A stretch of 64,000 nucleotides of DNA, from positions 1 through 64,000 of IMG/VR virus record IMGVR_UViG_3300045391_000045, one strand, 5' to 3'. Both the position numbers and the translations under genes were made by a program. A model generated the notes under the pieces. It searched no databases, had not been told where the DNA came from, and was given only the letters and a program-made list of their open reading frames with translations. Position 1 is the stretch's first letter; each line of letters opens with the position of its first letter. Positions 2,623-63,273 of the stretch are shown here, piece by piece. The DNA is from a virus.

Positions 2623-2900
2623 TTACGTGTGCATACGCTGAGTGTGGTCGTTTGTTTGAGGCAAAGACGCATAATCAGCGTTATTGTTCAGACGAATGTT
2701 GCCGAAAGGCGACCAACGCTCGTTTGATGGAGCAATACTACGAAAAGAAGGCTCGTAGACAGGGCCACATTCGTGTATGCAAGAATGCTGACTGTAATAC
2801 AAGACTGTCCAGATACAATGACAGTAATGAATGTCAGCGTTGTGCTTCGGCCAAGGAAACTGAGCGCCGTAAGCAGTTGCTTAATCTAGTAGGAATTTAA
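2619..2900 (+). CDS. Cys-rich zinc-finger protein
   Basis: multiple CxxC pairs, basic. Confidence 0.45.
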   Translation: MITCAYAECGRLFEAKTHNQRYCSDECCRKATNARLMEQYYEKKARRQGHIRVCKNADCNTRLSRYNDSNECQRCASAKETERRKQLLNLVGI

Positions 2901-3487
2901 TGTCACTTGTAGACCTAAAGAAAACTAAGGCGAGTAGGGTCATGGGCATTGACTGCTCGACTCACTCGCTTGCTTTTACCATCTTCTTCAATAGACGTCC
3001 CATCAAGTGGGGCAAGATTAATTTCGAAGGCGCTGACGTTTTTGACAGGCTGGAGGATGCAGCAAATAAGCTGCGGGCAGTCAAGGACGAGTTTGATGTT
3101 GACTACATCGCTTTTGAGAGTGCCATCTTGGCTAGGACCAAGAACGCAGACGTGACAATCAAGTTGGCTATGGTGTATGGTGCTTGTATCGCAGAGCTTA
3201 TGCGTAAGGGTGTCAAGGTCGTAACAGTCAAGCCCTTGACATGGCAGTCGTACATCGGTAATCCTAACTTCAAGCCAGCAGAGAAGCTAGCTCTGAAGAA
3301 GGAGTTCCCAGACAAGTCAGCTTCGTGGTACTCTACAAAAATCAGAGAGCTTCGAAAGCAGAAGACGATGGACTACTTCAATAAGAAGTGGCCGCACATG
3401 GAGCTAACAGATAATGATGTTGGTGACAGCGCGGGAATTGCCTATTACGCCTACTACAGTCTAACGACTCGTGGTAAGGTGGACTAA
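2900..3487 (+). CDS. RuvC-like Holliday junction resolvase
   Basis: GIDCS, DYIAFES and DSAGIA motifs matching the RuvC catalytic D/E/D triad layout. Confidence 0.7.
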   Translation: MSLVDLKKTKASRVMGIDCSTHSLAFTIFFNRRPIKWGKINFEGADVFDRLEDAANKLRAVKDEFDVDYIAFESAILARTKNADVTIKLAMVYGACIAELMRKGVKVVTVKPLTWQSYIGNPNFKPAEKLALKKEFPDKSASWYSTKIRELRKQKTMDYFNKKWPHMELTDNDVGDSAGIAYYAYYSLTTRGKVD

Positions 3488-3731
3488 GGCGCAGGGCTTC
3501 GGCCCAAGCTTAGGAGGAGAAATGTCAGAATACATGGATTGTGATGCATGTGATTGGGTTGACATTGGGGTAGGAATGCAAATGGTTCGTCCTGACCATT
3601 TCTGCCGGGTTAAGAGTCATCGAATCGATGCTTATGCATACTATGATGAACTACGTGGTCAAGAACTTGTTGATGCAGTTGAGGAAAATTGGCCACCATT
3701 TTGGGACCCTGAGGCGGTGAGTGTAGATTGA
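3471..3731 (+). CDS. hypothetical protein
   Basis: 86 aa ORF preceded by hairpin-AAGCTT-AGGAGG. Confidence 0.45.
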   Translation: MVRWTKAQGFGPSLGGEMSEYMDCDACDWVDIGVGMQMVRPDHFCRVKSHRIDAYAYYDELRGQELVDAVEENWPPFWDPEAVSVD

Positions 3732-4216
3732 AGGTAGGAATTACTGGACATAGACCAGAGCGTCTTGAGGACCATGAAGATGCTGTTAAAGAGCTTATAT
3801 CAGAAGCACTTCAGCAATTGAATGCCACCCGTCTTTATCAGGGAATGGCTGCTGGTGTTGACCTTTGGTCTGCTAAAGAAGCATGGAAGCTAAAGATTCC
3901 TTATGCTGCCGTGAAGCCTTGGGCTGGACATAAGCCAAGAGTAGCAGACCGTATTGAGTATGCTAAGGTTCTTAAGCACGCTACCGCAATTATTGATGTT
4001 GACCCATCAATCGAATACCCAGGAGCTTGGGTATACAACAAGCGAAATGAATTTATTGTTGATGAGGTGGGCACGATGATTGCCGTTTGGGATGGAAAGC
4101 CATACGGAGGTACATACAACTGCATCGAATACGCGTGGAAGAAGGCAATCCCAGTTTTGAGGATTGACCCTGAAGAAAGGGTTATTGAATATGTCAGCGA
4201 AGAAGTACCTTTCTAA
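3728..4216 (+). CDS. SLOG/DUF1273-DUF2493-like protein (VGITGHRP motif)
   Basis: N-terminal KVGITGHRP motif typical of YpsA/SLOG-type phage proteins. Confidence 0.4.
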   Translation: MKVGITGHRPERLEDHEDAVKELISEALQQLNATRLYQGMAAGVDLWSAKEAWKLKIPYAAVKPWAGHKPRVADRIEYAKVLKHATAIIDVDPSIEYPGAWVYNKRNEFIVDEVGTMIAVWDGKPYGGTYNCIEYAWKKAIPVLRIDPEERVIEYVSEEVPF

Positions 4217-4981: not shown

Positions 4982-5634
4982 GAATTTTGGTTATTGTGCC
5001 TACTCGCGGTAGGCCAGACAATATCGTTCGACTCGACAGGGCGATGCTTGACACACAGGTTGATGTTGAGGTAATGTACTGTGTTGACGAGGACGACCCA
5101 AGTCTTGCAGATTATGTGAGAACTGGAATCCCGCTGGTTATTGGAACACGAAAGAGGCTTGTTGGAACACTGAATGATGTTGCCAAAAGATTTGCTGACG
5201 ATTATGATATCATCGGTTTCCTTGGTGACGATGTTGTTCCTCGTACAATGAGGTGGGACAATGCTATCCGTGACAACTTCAAGCCAAATATGGTAGCCTA
5301 TGGAAATGATGGCCACCAGCGCGAGGGACTTCCAACCGGGGTGTTCCTTGACGCACGAATCGTAAGTGTGCTAGGGTACATGGTAGTTCCAACGCTGATT
5401 CACCTCTTCGCAGATAATTATTGGAAGACTCTTGGTGAAGCACTTGGTACGCTTACATACTTGCCAGATATTGACTTGGAGCACATGCATCCGTATGCTG
5501 GTAAGGCAGACCACGACCAAACTTATGCCGAAGCAAATTCAGGTCCCGTATGGGAACATGATGAAAAGGCATTCAGGTGGTACGTGGAAAACGAACTAGC
5601 ATTTGATGTGGAGATTCTAAGTCTAAATGAGTAA
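4978..5634 (+). CDS. glycosyltransferase family 2-like
   Basis: N-terminal RILVIVPTRGRPDN motif typical of GT-A fold glycosyltransferases; DDD acidic motif. Confidence 0.55.
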   Translation: MRILVIVPTRGRPDNIVRLDRAMLDTQVDVEVMYCVDEDDPSLADYVRTGIPLVIGTRKRLVGTLNDVAKRFADDYDIIGFLGDDVVPRTMRWDNAIRDNFKPNMVAYGNDGHQREGLPTGVFLDARIVSVLGYMVVPTLIHLFADNYWKTLGEALGTLTYLPDIDLEHMHPYAGKADHDQTYAEANSGPVWEHDEKAFRWYVENELAFDVEILSLNE

Positions 5635-6079
5635 TGTAGTTTATACTGGTGGAACATTTGATTTGTTCCATGAAGGTCACGTTGAATTGCTCCGGTCCTG
5701 CAAGAGAATTGCGGGGCCGGATGGTCTTGTCGTGGTATCACTGAACACTGATGAGTTCATTAAGCGATTCAAGATTAATCCTCCGGTTCAGACGTACCGA
5801 GAGCGTGAGGTGGTGTTGACTTCCTGCCGATACGTTGATATGGTAGTGCCGAACGTTGGAGAAGAAAATTCAAAGTTGACTATCGAGAAGTTCATGATTG
5901 ATAACAAGCGTGGCGTAGATATTGTTGCGATTGGCTCTGATTGGGCCGGACGTGACTACTATGGCCAAATGGGATTCACCAAGGCTTGGCTTGATAGTCT
6001 AGATATCACGCTTATCTATGTTGATAGGCGTACTGGAATGTCAACTACAAAGATTAAGGATAAGTTGAGAAATGGCTGA
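5627..6079 (+). CDS. cytidylyltransferase (glycerol-3-phosphate cytidylyltransferase-like)
   Basis: GGTFDLFHEGH (HxGH nucleotidyltransferase motif). Confidence 0.65.
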   Translation: MSNVVYTGGTFDLFHEGHVELLRSCKRIAGPDGLVVVSLNTDEFIKRFKINPPVQTYREREVVLTSCRYVDMVVPNVGEENSKLTIEKFMIDNKRGVDIVAIGSDWAGRDYYGQMGFTKAWLDSLDITLIYVDRRTGMSTTKIKDKLRNG

Positions 6080-14358: not shown

Positions 14359-14445
14359 GGAAGGTCAATCCGATTGGCGACGGAACTTGTCTTGAAAACA
14401 AGCGAGGTGTGAAAGCCCTTAGGAGTTCGACTCTCCTACCTTCCG
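14359..14445 (+). tRNA. tRNA-Ser (anticodon TGA)
   Basis: acceptor GGAAGGT/ACCTTCC perfect, anticodon arm CTTGT-CTTGAAA-ACAAG, long variable arm, T-arm AGGAG-TTCGACT-CTCCT. Confidence 0.6.
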
Positions 14446-14730
14446 CTTTACCCTAAGGAGTAAAATTGACTGAGACAGAGAATGTCGGTCCTACATCGTA
14501 TCAGCTAGCAATCATCCTTGCACTTCAGAGCAAGCATGTATACGCTAACACAGTTAGTTACGATGAGATTGCACGACGACGTAAGGCAAGCAAGCGAGCG
14601 CGGCTACAGCGCAGAACAAACAGAAGGCTTGACACGACACGTCGCTCGTGATAAGGTTTTATTAGATGGTCGGCAAGCAGGGAAGAGAAGGCTACAGGAG
14701 CTTGAGCAACAACACCTTCCACCATCACAT

Positions 14731-15933: not shown

Positions 15934-17550
15934 ATGTCTAATGCACTTGGTAAGTTTGCTGCTTCTCAGAAGCAGGAGCGCGTTGCTACGCCTCAGACAA
16001 AGCGTACCCCTGGTCGTACGGATGAGGTCAAGAACAACGCGGGCGGGTTTGTGTTCAAGGTAGACGACAAGTCTCGTCTTGAGCGCTTCCTGGTGTTGGG
16101 TACTGACAAGGGTACCTATTACGTTGGTGAGCAGAAGTTGACGGCTCAGAACATTTCCTTCCTGAAGGAGATGGTCCGTAAGGATGAGCGTCTGGTCGTG
16201 GACACTGCTGTTGACGTCTCTGTAAACGCTCGTGCGCTTAAGAATTCTCCTGCGCTGTTCGCTATGGCTCTGGTCATGACGGAGGGCAAGGACAAGGCTT
16301 ACGCTCGTGAGGCCGTACAGAAGGTTGCTCGTACGTCTACCCACCTTTTCGAGTACGCACAGTACATCGATGACCTGGGTGGTTGGGGTCGAGCAAAGCG
16401 TCGTTCTGTCGCTGAGTGGTACGAGAACAAGTCTATCGATGCGCTTGCGTATCAGGCTGTGAAGTACCGTCAGAGGAACGGTTGGACGCACCGTGACCTT
16501 TTCCGTCTTGCTCACCCTCAGGGTGTAGACCAGGGTGTTGGTAACTTCATCCTTGGCAAGGACGTTGAGGCTGAGGTGGAAATTCTTAAGGGCTTCGCTG
16601 CAATGCAGTCTGCGACTTCGGTCAAGGATGTTATTCGCACGCTGGAGACTTTCAAGAACCTTCCTTGGGAGACCATCCCTACTCAGTTCCTCAAGGATGT
16701 GAAGGTCTGGAAGACTCTGTTCTACAACGGTCAGCTTCGTGGCCAGGCTCTCATTCGCAACATTACTCGACTCGCTCGAATTGGTGCGTTTGATGACATG
16801 GTTTTCGCAACTGACTACGCGAACGCAATTGCTAACCAGGAAATGATTCAGAAGACTCGTCTTCACCCAATCAACTTCCTGAATGCGGTTGTTGTTCACG
16901 AGAGTGGACAGATTGACCGTAACGGTTACAGCATGTGGAGTGCCGGACGTAAGAAGGATTGGAAGTCTAACGGAAAGATTGTGGATGCTCTCAATGAGGG
17001 ATTCCACATGGCATTCAAGACTGTCGAGCCTTCTGGCAAGAGGACTCTGGTTGCGACTGACGTGTCTGGCTCAATGAGTCAGGCTGCCATCGGACTTGAC
17101 CTCTCTTGTGCTCAGGTTTCTGCGGCTGTTGCTATGACGGTTGCGCGTTCCGAGCCTTACAGTGACATTGTTGGCTTCTCTAGCAGCATTGTTGACTTGG
17201 GCATTACCGCTAAGAGTTCTTTTGCCGACGCAATGCGTAAGGTGAGTAACAGGAACTTTGGTGGTACGGATGCGGCTGCTGCAATTAAGTACGCTAACCA
17301 GAAGGGAATTCAGGTTGACACCTTCGTAGTTATCACTGATAACGAGACGTGGGGCGGAAGCCAGAAGCCTTTCCAGGCACTTAAGCAGTACCGTCAGAAG
17401 ACCGGAATTGATGCGCGTCTTGCGGTTCTCGGTGTGGCGTCTACGGACTTCACCATCGCTGACCCTACGGACCGTGGAATGATGGACTTCGTTGGTTTCG
17501 ATGCAAATGCGCCTAAGGCCCTCGCGGACTTCAGCGCTGGTCGTATCTGA
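15934..17550 (+). CDS. rsr: Ro60-like ribonucleoprotein (TROVE domain + C-terminal vWA/MIDAS)
   Basis: 538 aa; TROVE-like N-terminal region; MIDAS motif VATDVSGSM...TD; RBS AAAGGATTAGAAAAATG. Confidence 0.8.
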   Translation: MSNALGKFAASQKQERVATPQTKRTPGRTDEVKNNAGGFVFKVDDKSRLERFLVLGTDKGTYYVGEQKLTAQNISFLKEMVRKDERLVVDTAVDVSVNARALKNSPALFAMALVMTEGKDKAYAREAVQKVARTSTHLFEYAQYIDDLGGWGRAKRRSVAEWYENKSIDALAYQAVKYRQRNGWTHRDLFRLAHPQGVDQGVGNFILGKDVEAEVEILKGFAAMQSATSVKDVIRTLETFKNLPWETIPTQFLKDVKVWKTLFYNGQLRGQALIRNITRLARIGAFDDMVFATDYANAIANQEMIQKTRLHPINFLNAVVVHESGQIDRNGYSMWSAGRKKDWKSNGKIVDALNEGFHMAFKTVEPSGKRTLVATDVSGSMSQAAIGLDLSCAQVSAAVAMTVARSEPYSDIVGFSSSIVDLGITAKSSFADAMRKVSNRNFGGTDAAAAIKYANQKGIQVDTFVVITDNETWGGSQKPFQALKQYRQKTGIDARLAVLGVASTDFTIADPTDRGMMDFVGFDANAPKALADFSAGRI

Positions 17551-18912: not shown

Positions 18913-18990
18913 GCCCCAGTATCGCCACTGGCTTCTAACCAGTCGTTAACAGCGTAATGGAGTATGCAGGTTCGAATCCTGTCTGGGGTA
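18913..18990 (+). tRNA. atypical tRNA-like gene (anticodon TCT, Arg) with 5-nt D region and 22-nt variable arm
   Basis: acceptor GCCCCAG/CTGGGGT, anticodon arm ACTGG-CTTCTAA-CCAGT, T-arm GCAGG-TTCGAAT-CCTGT; no D-arm can be folded. Confidence 0.4.
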
Positions 18991-24386: not shown

Positions 24387-24665
24387 GGGGTAGCTTGGTT
24401 TCGACTTTGCTGGACGGGATATAAACGCAACCCTTCTTGGTCAAAGAAGTAAAACGGGCCAACCAAATAAATGCAAACTCTATGAATGCATCTGCTTTCG
24501 CTCTAGCAGCGTAAAAGCCGGGTTTGTCGGGAACCTAGGAACAGAATCCCGACTAGTACAAAATGTGTAGATAATGTGTAAGACCCTTCAGTGTGATTGA
24601 CAATGGTTGTAGAACGGTTATATGCTAGATAGTAAAGGACGCGGGTTCGACTCCCGCCTACTCCA
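24387..24665 (+). ncRNA. ssrA: tmRNA (ssrA), tag ANSMNASAFALAA
   Basis: 5' GGGGTAGCTTGGTTTCGAC...GGACGGGAT like tmRNA 5' end; in-frame tag GCA AAC TCT ATG AAT GCA TCT GCT TTC GCT CTA GCA GCG TAA (24473-24514); 3' T-arm GCGGG-TTCGACT-CCCGC + acceptor CTACTCC pairing GGGGTAG. Confidence 0.8.
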
Positions 24666-24676
24666 CACAGAAAGAT

Positions 24677-28817: not shown

Positions 28818-29885
28818 ATGGTACACGTTTCGAAGATTTTCTCGCTCGATGCGTTGCAGAAGGATATCGATGCGGGATTGGTACGTTCACAGGTAAATGA
28901 GGATGGGACGCTCCGCATTTACAATTACACCGAAGAGGTTCAGTACAAGCGAATGTGGAATGACGTTACGCTGAATTGTCGTGGCCTTATTCTCGACAAT
29001 TACATGCACGTTGTTGCTCGTCCATGGAAGAAGTTCTTCAATTTCGGTGAGCGTCCTCTTCTATTCAGCACTGACACTCCGGTTGAGGTGACTGACAAGA
29101 AGGATGGTTCATTGGGTATTCTTTATCGTCACCCAATGACCGGGGATTACCGAATTGCAACTCGTGGCTCTTTCTTGTCTGACCAGGCTATTCACGCTAC
29201 AAAGGTCTGGGACAACAAGTACAGCCACATCGCACAGCCTTGGGATGGAGTTACATTCCTGTTTGAGATTGTGTACCCTGACAATCGCATTGTGCTGGAT
29301 TACGGTGAGCTTGATGACCTAATCTTGCTGGGTGCCGTTCACAATCAGTATGGATGGTACTACGGTCCGAACGAGGCTGCTGGGATGCTCAACTGGACTG
29401 GTCCTGTCACTGAGGTCTTTGAGTACCGGACCACGAACGACTGCTTCAAGGTGCACCGTTCAAATGCTGAGGGTCTGGTAATTCGGGCCGGTAGCGAGAT
29501 GGTCAAGTTGAAGCAGGAGGACTACGTGGCTTTGCACAAGCTAGTCACAGGTCTGAACGAGCGTGCTGTATGGGAGCGCTTGAAGGCAGGCGAGACACGT
29601 GATAGTATCTGTGCATCGCTTCCCGATGAGTTCCACGGATTTGTTGACAAGGTTGCGGATGAGCTAGAGACAAAGTTCAACGAGATTTACCACAGTTCCC
29701 ACGTGGATTACTGTAAGGTGTTGAACATAATGCCTGGCAAATCAAGCATGAGTAAGGCAGACTGGCGTAAGATGTTCGCATCGCACGCTGTTAAGATGCC
29801 TAACTACGACTTGATTTTCAACTACCTTGACAACCGTCCGGTACAGGAGTCTATTTGGAAAATGATTCGTCCTAAGGGCGAGTAA
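28818..29885 (+). CDS. ATP-dependent RNA ligase, Rnl1-like
   Basis: nucleotidyltransferase motif I VTDKKDGSLG (KxDG), 355 aa. Confidence 0.65.
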   Translation: MVHVSKIFSLDALQKDIDAGLVRSQVNEDGTLRIYNYTEEVQYKRMWNDVTLNCRGLILDNYMHVVARPWKKFFNFGERPLLFSTDTPVEVTDKKDGSLGILYRHPMTGDYRIATRGSFLSDQAIHATKVWDNKYSHIAQPWDGVTFLFEIVYPDNRIVLDYGELDDLILLGAVHNQYGWYYGPNEAAGMLNWTGPVTEVFEYRTTNDCFKVHRSNAEGLVIRAGSEMVKLKQEDYVALHKLVTGLNERAVWERLKAGETRDSICASLPDEFHGFVDKVADELETKFNEIYHSSHVDYCKVLNIMPGKSSMSKADWRKMFASHAVKMPNYDLIFNYLDNRPVQESIWKMIRPKGE

Positions 29886-29924: not shown

Positions 29925-30203
29925 ATGAAAAATCTGGATTATGAAAAAGTCATTGATGGATATAACGACCTTCGTGAAACATGCCTTGTAATTGCTAAGC
30001 TTAACGATGAGCTGATGGGTCCTGACAGATGGCTGAAGTTTGCCATCCAAGACTCGGATATCACGTTGATGTTTACAGAGCGAGGCATCGTGTGCTATGG
30101 TAGTGCTTACACGACACAGACGATGGACAACGAACACTTCAGTTTCATGATTCCGTTTGAATATCTAGAGGAGTTTGAGGCAAATGCTAGAACTGGTGAT
30201 TAA
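29925..30203 (+). CDS. hypothetical protein
   Basis: hairpin-CAAGCTT-GGAGGAGAAATG upstream. Confidence 0.5.
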   Translation: MKNLDYEKVIDGYNDLRETCLVIAKLNDELMGPDRWLKFAIQDSDITLMFTERGIVCYGSAYTTQTMDNEHFSFMIPFEYLEEFEANARTGD

Positions 30204-30603
30204 CCGGGGGATTCCTGGTAGTGGAAAGTCAACATATGCTCGTGAGTGGGTATTGAAGCCAGGAACCAGACGTGCTAGGGTTAATCGTGATGACATTCGA
30301 ATGCAGCTCTATGGAGTTGAATTCGGTGTCCCGATTGAGGAGACTGTAGTAACGGCGGTTGAAGACCAGATGATTAACACCTTGCTTTCTGAGGGTGTCT
30401 CAGTCATCATTGATGACTGTAACATCAGTCAGCGATACATCAACAGGTTTACAAAGATGGGCGAGAAGCATGGCGCAGAGGTGAGAGTTAATCTCATCAA
30501 CGTTGACCTTGCGACTGCTCTGGACCGGAATAGCAAGCGTGACCGTTTCGTTCCAACCCATGTAATTCAGGATATGTATAAGAGACTTCAGGAGTCGCTG
30601 TAA
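30175..30603 (+). CDS. polynucleotide 5'-kinase (P-loop, T4 Pnk kinase-domain-like)
   Basis: Walker A GIPGSGKST, RxxxR; adjacent to RNA ligase. Confidence 0.6.
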   Translation: MRQMLELVINRGIPGSGKSTYAREWVLKPGTRRARVNRDDIRMQLYGVEFGVPIEETVVTAVEDQMINTLLSEGVSVIIDDCNISQRYINRFTKMGEKHGAEVRVNLINVDLATALDRNSKRDRFVPTHVIQDMYKRLQESL

Positions 30604-32508: not shown

Positions 32509-32540
32509 CGTGCGGCCCTTCGGGGCCGCTAGCTTTTTGA
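32509..32540 (+). terminator. rho-independent terminator
   Basis: GCGGCCC-TTCG-GGGCCGC then TAGCTTTTT. Confidence 0.65.
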
Positions 32541-33184: not shown

Positions 33185-33367
33185 TTGAAGGGATTCGTAA
33201 TGGCGGATTGGTACAAGGACCACAATGTGAGTCCGGACGCAGTGAGTGAAGAAGAGTATCGTGATTGGCTTGCTGTGAACGTGGGGGTTGAAGAGGCAGA
33301 CCGTTTCTGGTATGGTATTGACGATGCAGAGTTCCTAGGGGATGATGATTATGGCCGGGCTTCCTAA
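33185..33367 (+). CDS. hypothetical acidic protein
   Basis: 60 aa. Confidence 0.4.
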   Translation: MKGFVMADWYKDHNVSPDAVSEEEYRDWLAVNVGVEEADRFWYGIDDAEFLGDDDYGRAS

Positions 33368-33584
33368 GAAGATGTACTATGTGCTTATCAAGCCTGGTGG
33401 TAAGCCTCTAAGATATGGTAGAAAGGGTGGTGGCTCATACACCCTTGAGAATAACGCTCGTGGTCAGTATGAACACTTGAAGTCTCAGGGTTGCAAGGTT
33501 GAGCTTTACACTACCGAAGTTGAGTGGAACATGCTAGAGTCCAATGTAAACGAACCAATTGAAGGGCAGGAGCCTCTATGGTAA
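33342..33584 (+). CDS. hypothetical protein
   Basis: 80 aa. Confidence 0.4.
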   Translation: MMIMAGLPKKMYYVLIKPGGKPLRYGRKGGGSYTLENNARGQYEHLKSQGCKVELYTTEVEWNMLESNVNEPIEGQEPLW

Positions 33585-34054
33585 CGTATGTCAAGGGTGA
33601 TGCAACTAAGCCTCAGGGTGATGGCAGGAAGATTATCGCCCATGTTTGTAATGACGAAGGTGGTTGGGGCGCGGGATTTGTCCTTGCTGTGGACAAGTTG
33701 TCTTCGCAGCCACGAATCAGTTATCGAATGGCTTATGACCACTGGACTAAGGAAGAGGGGTTGACTTTCATCCCACTTGGATGGACTCAGCTTGATTATG
33801 TTGGCAATAACATTTACGTTGCCAATATGGTTGCTCAGCATCGTACAATCCGTAGTGTTGAGAAGCCAATTTGTTACAAGAGCCTTGAGGTATGCCTGGA
33901 AAAGGTTGCTAAGAGTGCAATTGCTCTTGATGCTACAGTACACATGCCTCGCATCGGATGTGGACTTGCAGGTGGCGACTGGAATGTGGTAGAGTCAATC
34001 ATCAACCGAACCCTAACGCTGAGGGATGTTCATGTCACAGTCTACGACCTTTGA
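33578..34054 (+). CDS. macro domain (ADP-ribose binding/processing) protein
   Basis: IIAHVCNDEGGWGAGFVLAV and GCGLAGGDW resemble macro domain Gly-rich ADP-ribose pocket motifs. Confidence 0.6.
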   Translation: MVTYVKGDATKPQGDGRKIIAHVCNDEGGWGAGFVLAVDKLSSQPRISYRMAYDHWTKEEGLTFIPLGWTQLDYVGNNIYVANMVAQHRTIRSVEKPICYKSLEVCLEKVAKSAIALDATVHMPRIGCGLAGGDWNVVESIINRTLTLRDVHVTVYDL

Positions 34055-34265
34055 GCAGATTCCATTGTTTGACGTTGACGAAATTCCATGGGGATATTGC
34101 TATGACTGCTATCTCAAGGTGGAATTTGACATCAACCACAGACTTCCATGGTGTTCAAATTGCAGCAAGGAAGTTCATTCATATGATTGGACAACGACTG
34201 CAAAGTTCAAGCCAATTCGTATCTCACCATCACAAGTGTTGAAGTCTAACACTGTACCCTGGTAA
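34026..34265 (+). CDS. zinc-binding protein
   Basis: CYDCY...CSNCS. Confidence 0.45.
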   Translation: MFMSQSTTFEQIPLFDVDEIPWGYCYDCYLKVEFDINHRLPWCSNCSKEVHSYDWTTTAKFKPIRISPSQVLKSNTVPW

Positions 34266-37571: not shown

Positions 37572-38348
37572 ATGTCCAAGATTATGATTCTGGGCGACGT
37601 TCACGGTGAGACAAAGTGGCTGGTGAACATGATTAACAAGGCCAGTCGAATGGGCGTCAAGAAGATTCTCCAGGTTGGAGATTTCGGAATCTGGACTCAT
37701 GAGGCTGAGGGACACCGGTTCCTTGACCGCGCAAATGAGGAGCTTCGTAAGCATGGCATTAAGCTCTATTTCGTTGGCGGCAATCATGAGAACTGGGACC
37801 ACCTGAATTGGCACGAGAAGAATGGTGCTAAGGACTGGAATGGTCACACATTTATTCGGTCTCACATTCTTTACACTGGTCGGGTGAATCGCTGGACCTG
37901 GGGTGAGAAGGGTGAGGAGAAGGTCTTTCAGGCTGTTGGTGGTGCCTTTTCAATTGACCGGCGTCGGCGGGTTGTTGGAAAGACTCTCTGGCTTGATGAG
38001 GAGATTCCTGACCGGGTTGTTTATGGTCTGGAGAAGGCTGGTCGGAAGTGTGATTACCTTTTCACGCATGATGGTCCTAGCTGTCTTCCATTCGCAAATC
38101 TGAAGCCTGATATCGACTCTGATATGCACCGGCAGAAGATGGACCGAATTGGGCGGGCTACTCGGCCTAATCTTTGGTTCCACGGTCACTATCACAAGTG
38201 GATGGAGTACAGCTTTATGCACCAGGAGGGTTATTCCTTCGTGTATGGGCTTGACCGGGACTATCAGTTCTACTCTTACGCCATTCTTGATACTGCATCT
38301 GGTGACGTTGAGACTGCAACTGGTAAGATTATCGAGCACGGAAACTGA
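37572..38348 (+). CDS. calcineurin-like metallophosphoesterase (Ser/Thr phosphatase-like or 2',3'-phosphoesterase)
   Basis: GDVHG, GDFG, GNHE motifs. Confidence 0.65.
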   Translation: MSKIMILGDVHGETKWLVNMINKASRMGVKKILQVGDFGIWTHEAEGHRFLDRANEELRKHGIKLYFVGGNHENWDHLNWHEKNGAKDWNGHTFIRSHILYTGRVNRWTWGEKGEEKVFQAVGGAFSIDRRRRVVGKTLWLDEEIPDRVVYGLEKAGRKCDYLFTHDGPSCLPFANLKPDIDSDMHRQKMDRIGRATRPNLWFHGHYHKWMEYSFMHQEGYSFVYGLDRDYQFYSYAILDTASGDVETATGKIIEHGN

Positions 38349-38434
38349 GATTTGCCATTTGAATAGTTATCCAATACAATGAAATGTATGGAGGTTAGTC
38401 CTCCGATAGATTTTTGAGGAGGTGTACTATTCAA

Positions 38435-39081: not shown

Positions 39082-39315
39082 ATGCCTAATCTCGATTACA
39101 AGGCAGCGCACCGATTTGTGCGGGAGCAGCGTCGGAATGGAAATGACGTTCGTTGGGAAGGCTGGGATATGGTATTCTGGAAGCCTACTCGACATGGATT
39201 CACCAGCATTAACGGAGCGTTCAAGAACGGCCGTTGGGGTGTTGAGTCTCGAATTTCCGTCAATTCTGACGGGGTGTGGATGGTCCCGAATAAGAATGTC
39301 AAGTCTACTCGATGA
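39082..39315 (+). CDS. hypothetical protein
   Basis: 77 aa. Confidence 0.4.
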   Translation: MPNLDYKAAHRFVREQRRNGNDVRWEGWDMVFWKPTRHGFTSINGAFKNGRWGVESRISVNSDGVWMVPNKNVKSTR

Positions 39316-39604
39316 ACTAGGACTAGACCCCGAAGATTTCCAGTGGCAAGACTTGGCTCTGTGCTCCAATATGCCAACATCTTTCTTCTATGATTCGTAT
39401 GAGTCAGACCAAGAAACGGCAAAGGCAACAGACCAAGTCTGCCTTCATTGTCCAGTAATAAAGCAATGCTTTTTTGCCGGGTCAGATGGAGAACACGGAG
39501 TTTGGGGTGGGGTTTACTGGAATGGTGCAGGTAAGCCCGATAAGAACAGAAATGCACATAAAACTGAACAGGTTTGGGTTGAAATCAGGAGCAAGGTCGA
39601 ATGA
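39296..39604 (+). CDS. whiB: WhiB-like [4Fe-4S] transcription factor
   Basis: four Cys (C..C..HC..C) plus GVWGG turn and basic tail. Confidence 0.6.
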   Translation: MSSLLDELGLDPEDFQWQDLALCSNMPTSFFYDSYESDQETAKATDQVCLHCPVIKQCFFAGSDGEHGVWGGVYWNGAGKPDKNRNAHKTEQVWVEIRSKVE

Positions 39605-46560: not shown

Positions 46561-46963
46561 CTACACTGAGATGGCCGTAGTTGACAGCAGCTTTATCGAC
46601 GCTGTTTACTACAACGACAAGAGCAGTGAGCTTGCCGTTTCAATGCTGAATGGCGACACGCATTTCTATGCGGATGTGCCTGCACGCGTTTTCTACAGCA
46701 TGGTTGACGGTTCTTCCGCTGGTGCTGCCTATAACCGAGAGGTTAAGGACCAGTACACAAACATTGCGGGCGGACCTGTTCATGAGGTACAGTTTGTTGA
46801 GCACGAGGTTGGTGTAACCAAGCGCTTCAACGTAAAGGCTGTGGTAGTATTTCAGCAGTGGTTTGACGCTGAATCTGCTGCGGACGCTGCCAAGCAGATG
46901 GAGAAGTACATGGCTCCGAACTATGGCAACGTATCAATCACGGAGGTTAAGGAAGTTGGGTGA
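46541..46963 (+). CDS. hypothetical protein
   Basis: 140 aa. Confidence 0.45.
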   Translation: MRTATFDYTEMAVVDSSFIDAVYYNDKSSELAVSMLNGDTHFYADVPARVFYSMVDGSSAGAAYNREVKDQYTNIAGGPVHEVQFVEHEVGVTKRFNVKAVVVFQQWFDAESAADAAKQMEKYMAPNYGNVSITEVKEVG

Positions 46964-47267
46964 GGTTCGTAAGGTCCGTACACTAACGGAACTTCACGAA
47001 ATTATGAACGACAATGATAAGGTCGTTCTTGACTTGGCTGCACCGTCATGGTGTGTTCCTTGTCAGAGGCTTGAGCCTCATTTTAAGAAGGCTGCTGAAA
47101 AGTCGGAGGCTGCGTTCGTTCAGGTAGATATTGAGGATGCCGAACAGGATATTCTCAACACCTATCCGACACAAAGTGTTCCAACGGTTCTTCTCTTGCA
47201 GAAGGGTGAGCCAACTGCTACGCTTAAGGGACGTACTTCGGTAGCACTTCTTAAGGAGATTGGGTAA
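46956..47267 (+). CDS. thioredoxin (TTG start inferred)
   Basis: WCVPC active site ~30 aa from inferred start; GGAGG 8 nt upstream of TTG. Confidence 0.55.
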   Translation: MGEVRKVRTLTELHEIMNDNDKVVLDLAAPSWCVPCQRLEPHFKKAAEKSEAAFVQVDIEDAEQDILNTYPTQSVPTVLLLQKGEPTATLKGRTSVALLKEIG

Positions 47268-48055: not shown

Positions 48056-48072
48056 TATTGCAGTACAATTGG

Positions 48073-48100
48073 GCTAGGGGAGAAATCCCCTAGCCTTTTT
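48073..48100 (+). terminator. rho-independent terminator
   Basis: CTAGGGG-AGAAA-TCCCCTAG then CCTTTTT. Confidence 0.65.
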
Positions 48101-48118: not shown

Positions 48119-48343
48119 ATGTCCATTGAGAGATGGGAAAATGAAGGAGGATTTATCCAGATGACTCATTCATATTTTGACAGAATGGGTTTTGAGGAAA
48201 CACACGAAGGCAGTCAGACAGACTGTCCAACCAAGCAGTGTCGTAAGGAACGCGCCTACTACCGCAGGATTCCAGCGATGGACCCGTGGCCTGATGGTTC
48301 CGGGCCATACGGCACCGACCCATGGATGCAGGAGGGTATCTAA
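48119..48343 (+). CDS. hypothetical protein
   Basis: RBS TGGAGGAAGCTTGTATG. Confidence 0.4.
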   Translation: MSIERWENEGGFIQMTHSYFDRMGFEETHEGSQTDCPTKQCRKERAYYRRIPAMDPWPDGSGPYGTDPWMQEGI

Positions 48344-48347
48344 ACAA

Positions 48348-48842
48348 ATGCACGTCGTACCAAAATTTGAAGGTGACCACTTCTTCCTGTCTAACTTTTA
48401 CGAGGCTCCCATACGTTTTGTGATGGGTGATGAGATGGTGGTCATGGCTACTGGGGAGCACGCTTTCCAGGCTGCCAAGGGCAACGCCATCCTTGACAAG
48501 GCAGAGAAGATGAGATACGTTCTTTCTGTTGCCGATGCCCCAACACCTGCCAAGGCAAAGTACCTTGGTCGTTCAGTCAAGATAGACCTTGACTGGTGGG
48601 AACGCATCAAGGTAGACTGTATGCGCGAAATTGTATTCCAGAAGTTTTTGCAGAACCCTGAGCTGAGAGTTAAGCTCTTGAATACAGGTGATGCTATGCT
48701 TGTGGAAGGAAATACCTGGGATGATAAATTCTGGGGGCGAGTAGATGGCAAGGGCTATAATAAGCTTGGTGTCATTTTGATGGAAGTGCGCGGATACTGG
48801 TATTGGCAGACACGTAGAAACAATCCGGAGATGGGGTCATGA
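48348..48842 (+). CDS. NADAR (DUF1768, YbiA-like) domain protein
   Basis: FLSNFYEAPIRF, GEHAFQAAK, WDDKFWG motifs typical of NADAR N-glycosidase-like domain. Confidence 0.6.
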   Translation: MHVVPKFEGDHFFLSNFYEAPIRFVMGDEMVVMATGEHAFQAAKGNAILDKAEKMRYVLSVADAPTPAKAKYLGRSVKIDLDWWERIKVDCMREIVFQKFLQNPELRVKLLNTGDAMLVEGNTWDDKFWGRVDGKGYNKLGVILMEVRGYWYWQTRRNNPEMGS

Positions 48843-49962: not shown

Positions 49963-50613
49963 ATGAGAGAGTATTCAAAGACCGATAACCTTTACAAGCG
50001 TAACCCTAAGAAGAAGTCTGAGCTTATCGTCGGAGATTACACCCGGCCGGAATTCGCTCATATCGTTTCTTGGTGGGTTACCGAGAAGGTTGATGGTACT
50101 AACGTTCGTCTTTGGTTCGACAAGGACGAGAACAGTGAATATCGTGGGCGTACAGACAATGCACATTTCAGCCCGGTGCAGCATGAATTCATGAACAACC
50201 TTCGTGATTCAATTAAGGAAGATGCAGTAAGCCTTATCCATCGTTTTGGGCTTGATGAGCTGCTTATCTTTGGTGAGCTTTATGGACCGAAGATTCTTTC
50301 TGGTGGCAACTACTCTGACAGTCTGGAGTTCCGAGCGTTTGACATGATGGTTAACGATAAGGTATGGTTGCGACCTGACGCAGTTGAGGAGAACGCAGCA
50401 GACCTTGGGCTGACCATGGTTCCGAACCTTGGCATGATGACTACGGCTCAAATCTTTTTCATGGTAGCTGGCGGATTCAAGTCCACCTTTGCCAAGAACA
50501 AGGATTTCGATGCTGAGGGTGTTATTGCACAGCCTGCGGTAAACCTGTATGACCAGCGTGGAGAGCGTGTTAAGTTCAAGTTGAAGCACAACGATTTGAA
50601 GCATGTAAGTTGA
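49963..50613 (+). CDS. Rnl2-family RNA ligase (minimal adenylyltransferase domain)
   Basis: motif I TEKVDGTN (KxDG), LIFGELYG, KFKLK; 216 aa. Confidence 0.6.
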   Translation: MREYSKTDNLYKRNPKKKSELIVGDYTRPEFAHIVSWWVTEKVDGTNVRLWFDKDENSEYRGRTDNAHFSPVQHEFMNNLRDSIKEDAVSLIHRFGLDELLIFGELYGPKILSGGNYSDSLEFRAFDMMVNDKVWLRPDAVEENAADLGLTMVPNLGMMTTAQIFFMVAGGFKSTFAKNKDFDAEGVIAQPAVNLYDQRGERVKFKLKHNDLKHVS

Positions 50614-51968: not shown

Positions 51969-52349
51969 ATGATTGAGTATAACACCACCTGTATTGTCGG
52001 TGGAAGTGAGATGCTTTGTGACCTTAAGTATGATGTTGATAGTCCTGCTGAGGTCAGCTTTACATTCCATACCCCCGACAAGTCTCCTGAGTGGGTTTTC
52101 TCAAGGGAGCTTCTTAAGGAAGCAATGTCTGACCGTGGAATGTCTGGAGAAGGTGACGTTCTTTTCTATGACCATGGTGATGCAGTCAGTATGCTTCTAA
52201 AGTCTCCGGAGGGAACTGGACTCGCCATTTTCCAGCGGGGTGTTATCAAGGAATTCGTTGAAGAAATCTACCATGAGGTAGAAGAGGACGACGACAAGTA
52301 TTTCCTTCCAGACCAGGAACTTAAGGAATGGCTGGAAGGTTTGGTTTAA
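51969..52349 (+). CDS. SsgA-like protein (SsgB-like)
   Basis: FHTPDKSPEWVFSRELLKEA...GEGDV matches conserved FHT/WVFxRxLL/GDV pattern of SsgA-like proteins. Confidence 0.5.
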   Translation: MIEYNTTCIVGGSEMLCDLKYDVDSPAEVSFTFHTPDKSPEWVFSRELLKEAMSDRGMSGEGDVLFYDHGDAVSMLLKSPEGTGLAIFQRGVIKEFVEEIYHEVEEDDDKYFLPDQELKEWLEGLV

Positions 52350-52831: not shown

Positions 52832-52869
52832 GGTAGTCATCATAACGACAAGCCAAGGAGGCTAACACA

Positions 52870-53220
52870 ATGAAGGTTTCGACTCGTGTCTCTCGCAAGG
52901 GCGGTATCTCCATCAAGAAGCTGGGGCGTCAGTCTCAGTCTCACAAGGCTGGCACGGTTGTCATGCGTAAGGTTCGCTTCAACGGCTCCATCCTGGGTGA
53001 CCTGGTTGAGGAGTCTCAGAACCGCTACGTGCCTCGTGTGAAGTCTTCTGTCACCTTCACGTCCGATGGTGAGCTGAACATCGTTCAGGGTATCATGGAC
53101 TGGGGTCAGGCTCGTTACATCAAGTCTCTTGGTGGTTACTACAACATCAAGAACGGTCAGCGTGTTGAGTCTGCGGAGTACGTCTACATCGTTGGTGACA
53201 AGATTTTCTACACCAACTGA
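52870..53220 (+). CDS. hypothetical protein
   Basis: RBS CAAGGAGGCTAACACAATG. Confidence 0.5.
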   Translation: MKVSTRVSRKGGISIKKLGRQSQSHKAGTVVMRKVRFNGSILGDLVEESQNRYVPRVKSSVTFTSDGELNIVQGIMDWGQARYIKSLGGYYNIKNGQRVESAEYVYIVGDKIFYTN

Positions 53221-53279
53221 TTGACACGCACCACCCAAGTCCTGTAAGGTATGACTACCGACAACGAAGGAGAAGGAAA

Positions 53280-53855
53280 ATGGCAACTGAGCGTGAGTAC
53301 CTGGTAACCCTTGGTCTGGCCAAGGCTGGTCGTGGCCGATTTTCGGCGGAAGCTAAGGCGGCCCTGGCAAAGGCTAAGTCTGAGGGAATGACGTTCGACA
53401 TGACTGCTGCTGAGGTTGCGAAGGCAGAGCGTCAGAACAAGCCTCAGAAGGTTCGTAAGACTGTCCAGGCTGTGAAGGAGGTTCGCCCCTCTCAGGATGC
53501 CTACGACGCCAAGTCTGTGCGTTCCTGGGGTGAGCAGGTGGGTATGATTGAGCGTGGCAAGCGTGGTAAGCTTCCTACGGCTCTCATCAACGCTTACCTT
53601 GCAGCGAACAAGACTGAGAAGAAGGTGACCGTTCGTCGGTCCGTTGGTAAGATTGACAAGGTTCGTGACGTTGCAGTAGGCTTCACTTACGCTCGTCGTG
53701 GTCCGAAGGACCCTGCCTTTATCTCTGAGCCGCTGGTGGCTGTTCAGTCTTGCGGTTCCTGCTCTAAGGGTGTAGCGTACTGCAAGTGCCAGAGTGGTCC
53801 CGTCGCCCCGAAGTACCTTGGTGGTGAGGTTCTGCTTCTGACTCGTCCGGAGTAA
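53280..53855 (+). CDS. lsr2: Lsr2-like nucleoid-associated DNA-binding protein
   Basis: C-terminal SVRSWGEQVGMIERGKRGKLPTALINAYLAA resembles Lsr2 DNA-binding domain (RGR AT-hook-like). Confidence 0.55.
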   Translation: MATEREYLVTLGLAKAGRGRFSAEAKAALAKAKSEGMTFDMTAAEVAKAERQNKPQKVRKTVQAVKEVRPSQDAYDAKSVRSWGEQVGMIERGKRGKLPTALINAYLAANKTEKKVTVRRSVGKIDKVRDVAVGFTYARRGPKDPAFISEPLVAVQSCGSCSKGVAYCKCQSGPVAPKYLGGEVLLLTRPE

Positions 53856-59125: not shown

Positions 59126-59198
59126 GACCTGAAAATCAGAAATACGCGGGGTGTTTTCCCTTGACACCCCGCAAGCTTGTAACACAAAAAGGAGAAGC

Positions 59199-59348
59199 AT
59201 GACTTTCACTGGTATTGTTTTCTTTGTGCTGGCATTCATCTGTGGTCTCTTCTCTATGGAGACTGAATGGCTAGCTAATGTTGCAGTGTTTTTCTTCGGT
59301 TGGTCTGTCGCGTTCATCATGCTTGGCATGGTACCCAAGAGGGGTTGA
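59199..59348 (+). CDS. small membrane protein
   Basis: RBS AAAAAGGAGAAGCATG. Confidence 0.4.
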   Translation: MTFTGIVFFVLAFICGLFSMETEWLANVAVFFFGWSVAFIMLGMVPKRG

Positions 59349-59373
59349 CACAGACCTCAGAGCAAGGTAAGTT
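59345..59373 (+). promoter_or_regulatory. promoter TTGACA-N17-TAAGTT
   Basis: GGGGTTGACACAGACCTCAGAGCAAGGTAAGTT. Confidence 0.4.
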
Positions 59374-59425
59374 AGTTCCTGTCAGAGCGGGTCACCCGCA
59401 TCGAACATAGAAGGAGAAACAACAA

Positions 59426-59737
59426 ATGCCCAAGCTCCGTGCGAAGAACGACCGTAGCGGTATCGCTGACCTTGGTGCTCACCACTCGTACAAGGCTCCG
59501 CGCATTCCCAACCCTCGCGTTTCCACTGAGGACTTCTGCGCTGACCACCACAGGCTTCAGGTGGCTCTTAGCCACAACCAGGTCACCGTGCGTCTTGCAG
59601 GAAAGGCCCTTGTTCGTCGTCAGAACACTGAGAACATCGAAAAGCTGAAGGCTGCTAAGGCGAACGTGCAGGTAACGAAGGAAATGATTTTCGAGCACAT
59701 CACGAATTGTGGTCAGTGTTCTTCGATTTCCGTCTGA
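59426..59737 (+). CDS. hypothetical protein
   Basis: RBS GAAGGAGAAACAACAAATG. Confidence 0.5.
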   Translation: MPKLRAKNDRSGIADLGAHHSYKAPRIPNPRVSTEDFCADHHRLQVALSHNQVTVRLAGKALVRRQNTENIEKLKAAKANVQVTKEMIFEHITNCGQCSSISV

Positions 59738-61263: not shown

Positions 61264-61408
61264 GAGTCTGGTTTGTAAGTGAAGGTAATTGTGATTGCTG
61301 TATGTACGTAGCTGCGGTCTTCTCTACCGAAGAGAAGGCCAATGCTTACAAGACAGATAGCAAGTATGTAGAAATTAATTGGCATATCGTAGACGAAGAG
61401 GATTAAAA

Positions 61409-61978
61409 ATGGCAACGTTTTTCACGAGTGACACGCATTTCGGTCATCAGCGAATTATCGAGCTGTGCGAGCGGCCTTTCGATTCTGTTGATGAAATGAA
61501 TGAGGCAATGATTGAGCGCTGGAATGAGACTGTAAAGCCTGAGGACATTGTTTTTCACCTTGGTGATGTGGCACTCGGTAAGATTGCTGAGTCCCTTCCA
61601 CTTATTGGTCGTCTGAATGGCAGCATTTTCCTTGTTCCTGGTAATCACGACCGCATTTTCTCTGGTGAAAAGGAGAAGCAGCGCGTTCGATTCCTGCCTG
61701 AGTACAAGAAGGTCTTTACTGGCATCATGGCTGAGAGCCTGCGTATGGTCCTAGGAGGCTCTGAGGTTATGGTGAGCCACTTCCCCTACGTTGGGGACTC
61801 CCATGGGGCAGACAGGCACGCTGACAAGCGTCCTAAGGATGAGGGTCTGCCTATCATTCACGGCCACGTGCATGATGAGTGGGCAGAAAACGGCCGGATG
61901 TTCAATGCAGGCGTGGACGTTCGAGACTTTCGGCCCGTTCATGAGGACGTGGTAGTTGACTGGCTCAAGAGCCTGTAG
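61409..61978 (+). CDS. metallophosphoesterase (YfcE/MJ0936-like)
   Basis: SDTHFGH, GDV, GNHD, GH motifs. Confidence 0.6.
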   Translation: MATFFTSDTHFGHQRIIELCERPFDSVDEMNEAMIERWNETVKPEDIVFHLGDVALGKIAESLPLIGRLNGSIFLVPGNHDRIFSGEKEKQRVRFLPEYKKVFTGIMAESLRMVLGGSEVMVSHFPYVGDSHGADRHADKRPKDEGLPIIHGHVHDEWAENGRMFNAGVDVRDFRPVHEDVVVDWLKSL

Positions 61979-62807: not shown

Positions 62808-62984
62808 ATGAAGGACACAGTTCCATTCAATATATACAAGGAACATGTCAAGATGGGTCACGAATGGAATGACCACACTGATGATTTGGAGAGATTCAAT
62901 ATCGATACGGTAAGTAAGAGAATCTATCGCTGTTCATGTGGCTGGATGGGATGGTTCAGAAGTGAAGATTTGGCTGGACGATGA
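62808..62984 (+). CDS. hypothetical small protein
   Basis: RBS TTTTAGGAGGTTACATG. Confidence 0.35.
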   Translation: MKDTVPFNIYKEHVKMGHEWNDHTDDLERFNIDTVSKRIYRCSCGWMGWFRSEDLAGR

Positions 62985-63273
62985 GCGTAATCCAAATGAT
63001 TGGGTAGAAAACCCAAAGTCTTGGTTTTGGGTTAAGAATAGCTATGATGCTATTGAATTGCTCGATGACATTCGTCGTAAGGGTAACACAGTTGACGTCA
63101 TGTCGTTTGACCATGACCTAGGGGGTAGCGATACCTCACGTCGTGTGGTACTGTGGTGCTGTGAGCAAGAGTGGTGGCCCAATGAGTGTCGAGTCCACTC
63201 TGCGAACCCTGTAGGATATGAGTGGTTGTCTGGTATGATTAACCGATACGCACCCGAAGGGACGTTGAAGTGA
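62938..63273 (+). CDS. hypothetical protein
   Basis: 111 aa. Confidence 0.4.
   Translation: MAGWDGSEVKIWLDDERNPNDWVENPKSWFWVKNSYDAIELLDDIRRKGNTVDVMSFDHDLGGSDTSRRVVLWCCEQEWWPNECRVHSANPVGYEWLSGMINRYAPEGTLK

Follow-up and report, generated by a model that had tools for sequence, protein, structure and literature searches.

A stand-alone macrodomain and a stand-alone NADAR protein encoded by a Gilsonvirus-like Streptomyces phage: candidate orphan erasers of base-linked ADP-ribose

Why should one phage genome carry two separate enzymes for the removal of ADP-ribose, and do the two belong to one system? The question is raised by a 64,000-nucleotide stretch of viral DNA (positions 1 to 64,000 of IMG/VR record IMGVR_UViG_3300045391_000045; hereafter the window), in which an initial annotation had placed a macrodomain gene at 33578-34054 and a separate NADAR (DUF1768) gene at 48348-48842. 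Both open reading frames (ORFs) lie exactly at these coordinates on the plus strand, stops included; each starts with ATG, and they encode 158 and 164 amino acids, respectively. The window DNA is approximately 83-85% identical at the nucleotide level to Gilsonvirus phages of Streptomyces (Stanwilliamsviridae, Loccivirinae), with Francob as the closest relative. As discussed below, both domain assignments hold, the catalytic residues of both proteins are conserved, no partner writer enzyme was found among the plus-strand ORFs scanned in the window, and the two genes are gained and lost independently among related phages. The two proteins may act as independent erasers of ADP-ribose on phage nucleic acid, a reading that we consider about as probable as all other explanations combined.

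Fold, subclass and active site of the two proteins

The Pfam Macro family (PF01661) matches the protein encoded at 33578-34054 with 17.6 bits over residues 90-142 only, below its cut-off of 22, and the orthologue in phage Comrade is likewise sub-threshold at 18 bits, which reflects the insensitivity of PF01661 to this subclass of macrodomains. The assignment therefore rests on sequence matches in the Protein Data Bank (PDB) and on structure. In phmmer searches, residues 2-158 matched BT1257 (2fg1/2afc; E 2.5e-41) and SCO6735 (5e3b; E 7.7e-39), two proteins of the same length to which the phage protein is 50% and 47% identical over its full length, respectively; weaker matches were obtained to the macrodomain of ALC1/CHD1L (approximately E 1e-15) and to TARG1 (E 2e-6). 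With 42 homologues as input, AlphaFold2 gave a model with a predicted local distance difference test score (pLDDT) of 94.1 and a predicted template modelling score (pTM) of 0.90. The best Foldseek matches to this model in the PDB were BT1257 (template modelling score, TM, 0.90), SCO6735 (0.84) and ALC1 (approximately 0.8), with TARG1, Poa1p and DarG all at a TM of approximately 0.75; all 129 PDB matches at E ≤ 1e-3 are named as macrodomains, except for a designed serine hydrolase family. The sequence and fold matches therefore establish the protein as a stand-alone macrodomain of the ALC1-like class and the SCO6735/BT1257 subclass, with a three-layer alpha/beta/alpha macro fold and a Gln-type active site. 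It also matches PHROG 335 (E 1e-25). Its orthologue in Francob, gp167 (L001:6576-7064; 73% identical), carries the only 'ADP-ribosyltransferase' annotation in that phage, which is a misnomer.

SCO6735 efficiently removes the thymine-linked ADP-ribose made by DarT, and not guanine-linked ADP-ribose; it is active on thymine-ADP-ribose in vitro, in Escherichia coli and in Streptomyces coelicolor, and rescues both bacteria from DarT (PMC9411070). It uses Gln85 (a Lys in DarG and TARG1), Asn27, the backbone of Val25 and the Gly126/Gly128 loop, with Lys34 and Lys89 positioning the DNA (PMC9411070). The phage protein keeps the catalytic set as H22, V23, N25, Q87, G127 and G129 (corresponding to His24, Val25, Asn27, Gln85, Gly126 and Gly128 of SCO6735). 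Across 42 homologues H22, N25, Q87, G127 and G129 are invariant, and position 23 is Val or Ile. The likeness to SCO6735 and BT1257 thus extends to the entire His/Val/Asn/Gln and G-x-G centre; the phage protein differs from them in a loop after the Gln that is two to three residues shorter, in a loop at 51-66 that is four to five residues longer, and in its DNA-positioning residues, to which we return below.

Comparison with the macrodomains of DarTG2 biology sets the phage protein apart. It shares with DarG2 the ALC1-like class, the fold (TM 0.75 to 5m3e and 5m3i) and the conserved Asn, whereas it scores 20.7 bits on NCBIfam NF048014 against a cut-off of 250, and 22 bits, as a local match only, on the PADLOC DarG model. 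It has Gln in place of the catalytic Lys80, lacks the C-terminal DarT-binding domain and has no adjacent DarT, and on these four counts a role as a DarG2 antitoxin was rejected. AdfM (PhiKZ gp104), with which a phage macrodomain was first shown to overcome DarTG2, is likewise a single-domain protein and a proposed eraser of thymine-linked ADP-ribose (PMC13309987). However, it has no significant pairwise similarity to the window protein (BLASTP E 0.02; 21% identity over 109 columns with 37% gaps), the G-x-G loop being all that the two have in common in the alignment, and it is of the DarG2-like kind, having a catalytic Lys (N23/K78) where the window protein has Gln. Judged from these alignments, the window macrodomain comes from another subclass and was acquired independently of AdfM.

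The NADAR assignment is borne out by Pfam (PF08719; 90.2 bits against a cut-off of 35.1, E 2e-25) and by PDB sequence matches to YbiA (2b3w; E 3e-13) and to the Phytophthora NADAR protein PnNADAR (8bau; E 3e-7). Its AlphaFold2 model (pLDDT 94.7) has YbiA (TM 0.76) and PnNADAR (TM 0.73) as its only significant PDB folds. The protein is a stand-alone NADAR of the YbiA type. With Pfam support here, and PDB matches and structure in the case of the macrodomain, both domain assignments of the initial annotation hold. At nine positions that contact ADP-ribose or take part in catalysis in PnNADAR (PMC11543638), the window protein has eight identical residues and one conservative Arg-to-Lys replacement (PnNADAR to window: E43 to E37, K50 to K44, K75 to K71, R79 to R75, W89 to W84, R93 to K88, E125 to E120, D130 to D126 and W133 to W129). 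Among 43 homologues, seven of these positions never vary, whereas K or R (with one G) occurs at position 88 and W or F at position 129. The position that discriminates between subfamilies is Asp in the DarT1-linked DarG1/BC4488 type and His in T4-type phage NADARs (PMC11543638); here it is the YbiA-type Glu (E120), in 43 of 43 sequences. The NCBIfam model TIGR02464 (riboflavin biosynthesis intermediates N-glycosidase) is missed marginally, with 72.1 bits against a cut-off of 73.7. In databases, NADAR orthologues are mislabelled as 'glycosylase', and in T5-like phages as 'GTP cyclohydrolase II' or 'swarming motility protein'.

A local tblastn search over 38-102 kb of the 111.6-kb Bas33 genome located the NADAR gene of that phage, bas33_0070. 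Its product is of the Glu type (Pfam 79 bits) and shares 43% identity with the window protein across 146 amino acids (E 1.6e-28). Bas32 and Bas33 encode identical NADARs (AdfN-Bas32; Johannesman et al., PMC11825919), and AdfN-Bas32 can neutralise DarT1 in E. coli and allows three phages to form plaques again on hosts with DarTG1, but has no effect on DarTG2 (PMC11825919). Like the AdfN proteins described so far (Bas32/Bas33, Bas60 and T4 gp30.3; PMC11825919), the window protein is an orphan single-domain phage NADAR; it shares the Glu discriminator of Bas33 and the catalytic Glu/Lys pair (E36/K43 in T4), and differs in the phylum of its host, Actinobacteria, and from the T4-type NADARs in their His discriminator. 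It fits the AdfN concept, is closest to the Bas32/33 type, and is predicted on this basis to have anti-DarT1 activity. With DarG1 and YbiA it has in common the NADAR fold and the ADP-ribose-binding residues. However, BC4488-type DarG1 proteins have an Asp discriminator, a basic N-terminal extension of approximately 60-70 residues and a neighbouring DarT1, and are 229-234 amino acids long (PMC11543638), as against 164 amino acids here with the domain beginning at about residue 10; with Glu instead of Asp, no N-terminal extension and no ADP-ribosyltransferase (ART) gene among the scanned plus-strand ORFs of the window, a role as a DarG1 antitoxin was rejected. From E. coli YbiA the protein differs in being phage-borne, in lying outside a LexA operon and in falling just below the TIGR02464 cut-off.

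Partners and distribution of the two genes

Neither eraser is accompanied by a recognisable writer: two Pfam runs on concatenated ORFs, covering all plus-strand ORFs of at least 70 amino acids, found no ART, DarT, Sir2, Tpt1/KptA, Nudix or 2H gene in the window. A tblastn search of the window with the Sir2 protein of phage Comrade found none either (best E 0.45). Matches to 'Serglycin' in the partner scan are artefacts of the Gly-Ser linkers that joined the ORFs. Two candidates for a salvage pathway of nicotinamide adenine dinucleotide (NAD+) were discarded: a PnuC-like ORF at 746-973 is a 75-amino-acid fragment below the cut-off, and a nucleotidyltransferase at 5627-6079 stands behind two glycosyltransferase genes and looks sugar-related.

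The macrodomain and NADAR genes are 14.3 kb apart, belong to separate transcription units by prediction, and are each gained or lost without the other among relatives; their pairing is therefore thematic and not operonic. By tblastn, macrodomain homologues are present in 38 Streptomyces phage records and NADAR homologues in 126. Phage Jada (MZ820094.1, 101411-101488) retains only the last 26 NADAR codons and is a natural knockout; the NADAR gene is therefore dispensable, as expected of an accessory gene in biological conflict. The identical macrodomain protein is encoded on three independent metagenome contigs, the longest of 129,142 bp. Together with the PDB and Pfam matches, these occurrences show that neither ORF arose by chance. 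The macrodomain gene is 72% identical to its Francob counterpart, against a window median of 86%, and as this is only mildly below the median, fast evolution of the gene was rejected. Macro and NADAR domains co-occur in DNA viruses above chance, and co-occurrence of SLOG, Macro and NADAR domains has been reported (PMC9503650). The unrelated Bacillus phage vB_BanS_Nate (OK499992.1) has homologues of macrodomain and NADAR genes at 52853-53302 and 59172-59636, approximately 6 kb apart, which is an independent recurrence of the pair.

Possible substrates and competing explanations

The reading to which we give even chances, judged from sequences and structural models, is that the two proteins are single-domain orphan erasers, independent of each other, which strip ADP-ribose from the bases of phage nucleic acid after ADP-ribosyltransferases of the host or of a competitor have attached it there. 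Both genes would be expressed early. NADAR would cleave the N-glycosidic bond of guanine-N2-linked ADP-ribose, the product of DarT1 and also of pierisin-family enzymes such as ScARP, through its conserved Glu37/Lys44/Glu120 centre. The macrodomain would cleave thymine-linked ADP-ribose, the product of DarT2, and possibly uracil-linked or Glu/Asp-linked adducts, by a mechanism of the SCO6735 type in which Gln87 and Asn25 would orient the distal ribose, with the water placed by the backbone of Val23. Removal of the adducts would allow the AT-richer phage genome to be replicated and transcribed in DarTG-type hosts. There are precedents for both activities, as phage NADARs (AdfN) defeat DarTG1 (PMC11825919) and the phage macrodomain AdfM defeats DarTG2 (PMC13309987), and all NADAR subtypes tested so far strip guanine-ADP-ribose in vitro (PMC11125620). 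On the host side, Actinobacteria are a phylum for which DarTG is listed as enriched (PMC10482375), and DarTG is present in some Streptomyces (PMC9411070). The initial annotation had taken the two proteins together to point to counter-defence; given the homology to the Bas32/33 NADAR and to SCO6735, this is still the best-supported role, although the genes do not form an operon.

The window has a G+C content of 47%, and its TNTC and TTTW sites per kb are approximately 2.5-8 times the expectation for a host of 72% G+C; this surplus over a GC-rich host weakly supports a need for protection against DarT2. TTTW is below a simple base-composition expectation that is not codon-aware (12.0 against 19.3 per kb), and TNTC is not; avoidance of DarT2 motifs was rejected as a conclusion, because the low TTTW count is uninterpretable under such a model.

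Several observations weigh against the two proteins being erasers of DNA adducts. The macrodomain is without the two DNA-positioning lysines of SCO6735, Lys34 being replaced by Ala32 and Lys89 by Ile91; the whole phage clade has Ala or Ser at position 32, where most cellular homologues have Lys. In SCO6735, the K34E replacement almost eliminates activity on DNA and barely affects protein substrates (PMC9411070). The phage protein is also near-neutral, with an isoelectric point of 6.95 compared to 9.7 for SCO6735. The missing lysines and the neutral charge are the sole real structural reservation about DNA as the substrate of the macrodomain; Arg89, Arg92 and Lys96, which the closest phage subclade has in the same loop as Ile91, may compensate for them. 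As to NADAR, YbiA of E. coli and AdfN of T4 both act on guanine-ADP-ribose in vitro, removing it, yet neither rescues cells from DarT1 on its own (PMC11125620), so that in vitro chemistry is no guarantee of a role in vivo. Almost all Streptomyces already encode SCO6735, which leaves the need for a phage copy unexplained. Finally, in the sister phages Comrade, Stigma, Belfort and Karp, the gene for a CobB-like Sir2 protein of 227 amino acids ends one base before the start of the macrodomain gene, which points to a different partner logic. The Comrade Sir2 (L004:2073-2756, followed by the macrodomain gene at 2757-3233) matches PF02146 with E 1.9e-36 and NCBIfam CobB-type deacylase models with 159-173 bits.

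This gene order is the chief argument for the foremost rival explanation, in which the macrodomain serves a sirtuin-macrodomain module as its eraser or clean-up component, either deacylating the O-acyl-ADP-ribose made by a sirtuin or reversing ADP-ribosylation by the sirtuin, with the sirtuin lost from the window phage or the host CobB used in its place. The Sir2-macrodomain pair is possibly such a module, or a writer/eraser pair, that is present or absent by lineage. Names in the databases agree with it: the fold neighbour TARG1 is called 'O-acetyl-ADP-ribose deacetylase 1' in the PDB, and the family of the phage macrodomain is called O-acetyl-ADP-ribose deacetylase by the Joint Genome Institute. 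TARG1 does have O-acyl-ADP-ribose deacylase activity. However, the window has no Sir2 gene by the tblastn search above, and most relatives that were inspected have no Sir2 gene at this position, as seen in the gene tables of Francob, Forrest and Wakanda and suggested by match lists for Gilson, Emma1919, MeganTheeKilla, Phredrick and Kenrey; the macrodomain is therefore retained without a phage sirtuin. The module would also leave NADAR unexplained, and we regard it as unlikely, if still the most credible of the rivals.

Next in plausibility, and likewise unlikely, is that both enzymes degrade soluble molecules derived from ADP-ribose, namely immune second messengers or toxic NAD+ products of TIR, Sir2 or ART-type defences, and do not act on macromolecular adducts. 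This was argued by Iyer et al. (2022), the support being limited to domain co-occurrence and, here, a distant SLOG gene. The window does encode a YpsA-type SLOG protein (3728-4216, plus strand; 28.8 bits against a cut-off of 27.7), but its gene lies 30 kb away in a group of recombination genes and carries the annotation 'DprA-like' in Francob, and there is no Nudix gene among the plus-strand ORFs of the partner scan. Moreover, the reported assays of the SCO6735 subclass and of NADARs all show base-linked or protein-linked ADP-ribose as the substrate (PMC9411070, PMC11543638, PMC11125620, PMC11833690), and the closest validated phage NADAR counters DarTG1 (PMC11825919).

A third possibility, ranking behind these two, separates the roles of the two proteins. 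The macrodomain of the phage clade would have no part in countering DarT2 and would be the eraser of a phage-encoded sirtuin-macrodomain writer/eraser pair that acts on host or phage proteins or RNA, a role suggested by the absence of Lys34 from this clade and by the operonic Sir2 gene in sister phages. NADAR would counter an unrecognised Streptomyces defence that ADP-ribosylates guanine, for example intracellular enzymes of the pierisin/ScARP family directed against phage DNA. We consider this combination improbable.

Clean-up after RNA repair is more doubtful. Both enzymes would process by-products of NAD-dependent repair, that is, the ADP-ribose-1''-2''-cyclic phosphate or ADP-ribose-1''-phosphate produced through Tpt1/KptA, and the initial annotation had offered the latter as its alternative. 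The window is indeed rich in RNA-repair functions, with 31 tRNA genes, a transfer-messenger RNA (tmRNA), a Ro60 protein, two ligases, a kinase, two metallophosphoesterases and a cREC_REC protein. Prominent among them are an Rnl1-type RNA ligase (28818-29885), an AAA_33 polynucleotide kinase (30175-30603), a PF09414 ligase (49963-50613) that lies 1.1 kb downstream of NADAR, and metallophosphoesterases (37572-38348). The label of PHROG 335 is 'phosphatase', Poa1p is a fold neighbour of the macrodomain (TM approximately 0.75), and earlier analyses of genomic context, cited in PMC9503650, associated NADAR genes with systems of RNA repair. Nevertheless, the scans of plus-strand window ORFs turned up neither Tpt1/KptA nor a 2H phosphoesterase, and Francob has none annotated. 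Repair by kinase and Rnl1 uses no NAD+, and the phage repair set is of this NAD-independent type. PDB entries for the S30A and H23A mutants of Poa1p suggest that these residues are functional; Ser30 is replaced by Gly29 in the window macrodomain and by Gly across the SCO6735/BT1257 subclass. The ligase near NADAR is unannotated in the equivalent region of phage Tomas. In the light of these points the ADP-ribose-1''-phosphate proposal appears weak, and clean-up after RNA repair very unlikely.

Least probable, and hardly credible, is that NADAR is a YbiA-like housekeeping N-glycosidase of reactive intermediates of the riboflavin pathway: the near-miss on TIGR02464 and the YbiA-type Glu discriminator would fit, but the Pfam scans found no riboflavin genes in the window, the Glu-type NADAR of Bas32/33 acts as an anti-DarTG1 factor (PMC11825919), and NADAR is dispensable, having been deleted in Jada.

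Gene neighbourhoods, phage context and implications

The macrodomain gene is preceded by a ribosome-binding site (AGGAG, 33568-33572, plus strand) located 5 nucleotides upstream of its ATG, by direct reading of the sequence. Directly upstream is a conserved plus-strand ORF of 80 amino acids (33342-33584) whose protein has no assigned function. Its stop overlaps the macrodomain start (ATGGTAA), which suggests that the two are translationally coupled. In Comrade, the positional counterpart of this ORF (gp160, 228 bp) overlaps the start of the Sir2 gene instead, and the ORF therefore appears to be coupled to whichever gene heads the module. Downstream, the macrodomain gene is directly followed by genes for rIIA-like, rIIB-like and metallophosphoesterase proteins, and the order macrodomain-rIIA-rIIB is kept as far as Wakandavirus. 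The slot between macrodomain and rIIA is variable. In the window it holds a Cys-rich ORF of 79 amino acids with a CxxC...CxxC pattern (34026-34265, plus strand) that has no Francob counterpart and no Pfam match; in Forrest and Jada it holds an HNH endonuclease gene, and in Wakanda a gene for a membrane protein of 66 amino acids. Given these differing contents, the slot is an insertion hotspot.

A consensus scan identified three terminator-like hairpins on the plus strand near the two genes. The first (32512-32529; seven G-C pairs and a T run) probably forms the upstream boundary of a unit comprising small ORFs, the macrodomain, rIIA, rIIB and the metallophosphoesterase, and the second, after the metallophosphoesterase gene (38389-38405), its probable downstream boundary. 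The third (48071-48096; an 11-pair stem followed by TTTTT) lies just upstream of a 79-amino-acid ORF and NADAR and would separate the NADAR unit from the genes before it. Promoter-like sites were not above the numbers in shuffled sequence (11 compared to 7.6 ± 3.0 and 7.0 ± 2.5), and no promoter is claimed.

The NADAR gene starts 4 nucleotides past the stop of this 79-amino-acid ORF and has an AGGAGGG ribosome-binding site at 48330-48336 (plus strand), 11 nucleotides upstream of the ATG, again by direct reading. A longer ORF from a TTG at 48177 was rejected, as it overlaps the upstream gene, Francob gp204 is likewise 495 bp long and a good ribosome-binding site precedes the ATG at 48348. The gene is downstream of a thioredoxin gene, a position that is kept in another subfamily (phage Tomas).

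In Gilsonvirus-like genomes, which are approximately 128-130 kb in size, the counterpart of the window extends from approximately 54 to 118 kb. The window is the long rightward arm of small accessory genes, with the 31 tRNA genes and the tmRNA interspersed among small ORFs at 11742-44030; the tmRNA (24387-24668) encodes the tag ANSMNASAFALAA. The tRNA-Ser(tga) at 14359-14446 also matches the Rfam model of selenocysteine tRNA (47.1 against a threshold of 47), a label that is probably false. The Ro60 orthologue, with TROVE and vWA domains, is encoded at 15934-17550 (plus strand). Approximately 1.4 kb downstream of it, directly after tRNA-Arg(gcg), is an odd tRNA-like element (18913-18990, plus strand) that scores 34 bits on the Rfam tRNA model, has a D-arm cut to 4 nucleotides and a variable region of 19 nucleotides, and was missed by ARAGORN; the element may be a degenerate tRNA or else mimic a tRNA in the manner of Y RNAs. 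The phage also encodes homologues of regulators of development or of the nucleoid in Streptomyces, namely SsgA-like (51969-52349), WhiB-like (39116-39604) and Lsr2-like (53280-53855, so called by the Francob annotation) proteins, in addition to the thioredoxin (46956-47267). A cREC_REC 'cyclic-phosphate processing receiver' protein (62938-63273, plus strand; PF20274, 78.8 bits) has no Francob counterpart, and its gene is near genes for a metallophosphoesterase (61379-61978) and a SprT-like protease.

For the biology of these phages, the principle of counter-defence by orphan antitoxins was already published in 2025-2026, and the window does not present a new kind of system. The twist is a modest one, with a Gln-type macrodomain without Lys34 and with both erasers in one genome; the database labels of the Francob macrodomain orthologue and of the NADAR orthologues are corrected in passing. 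If the two proteins do act on phage nucleic acid, orphan-antitoxin counter-defence (AdfN, 2025; AdfM, 2026) would reach beyond coliphages and Pseudomonas jumbo phages and include actinophages, and the Gln-type macrodomain is nominated as a second subclass of possible anti-DarT2 factor, which would then be a recruitment independent of AdfM and from a different macrodomain subclass. A thymine-type and a guanine-type eraser in one phage would provide a testable case of broad anti-DarT cover.

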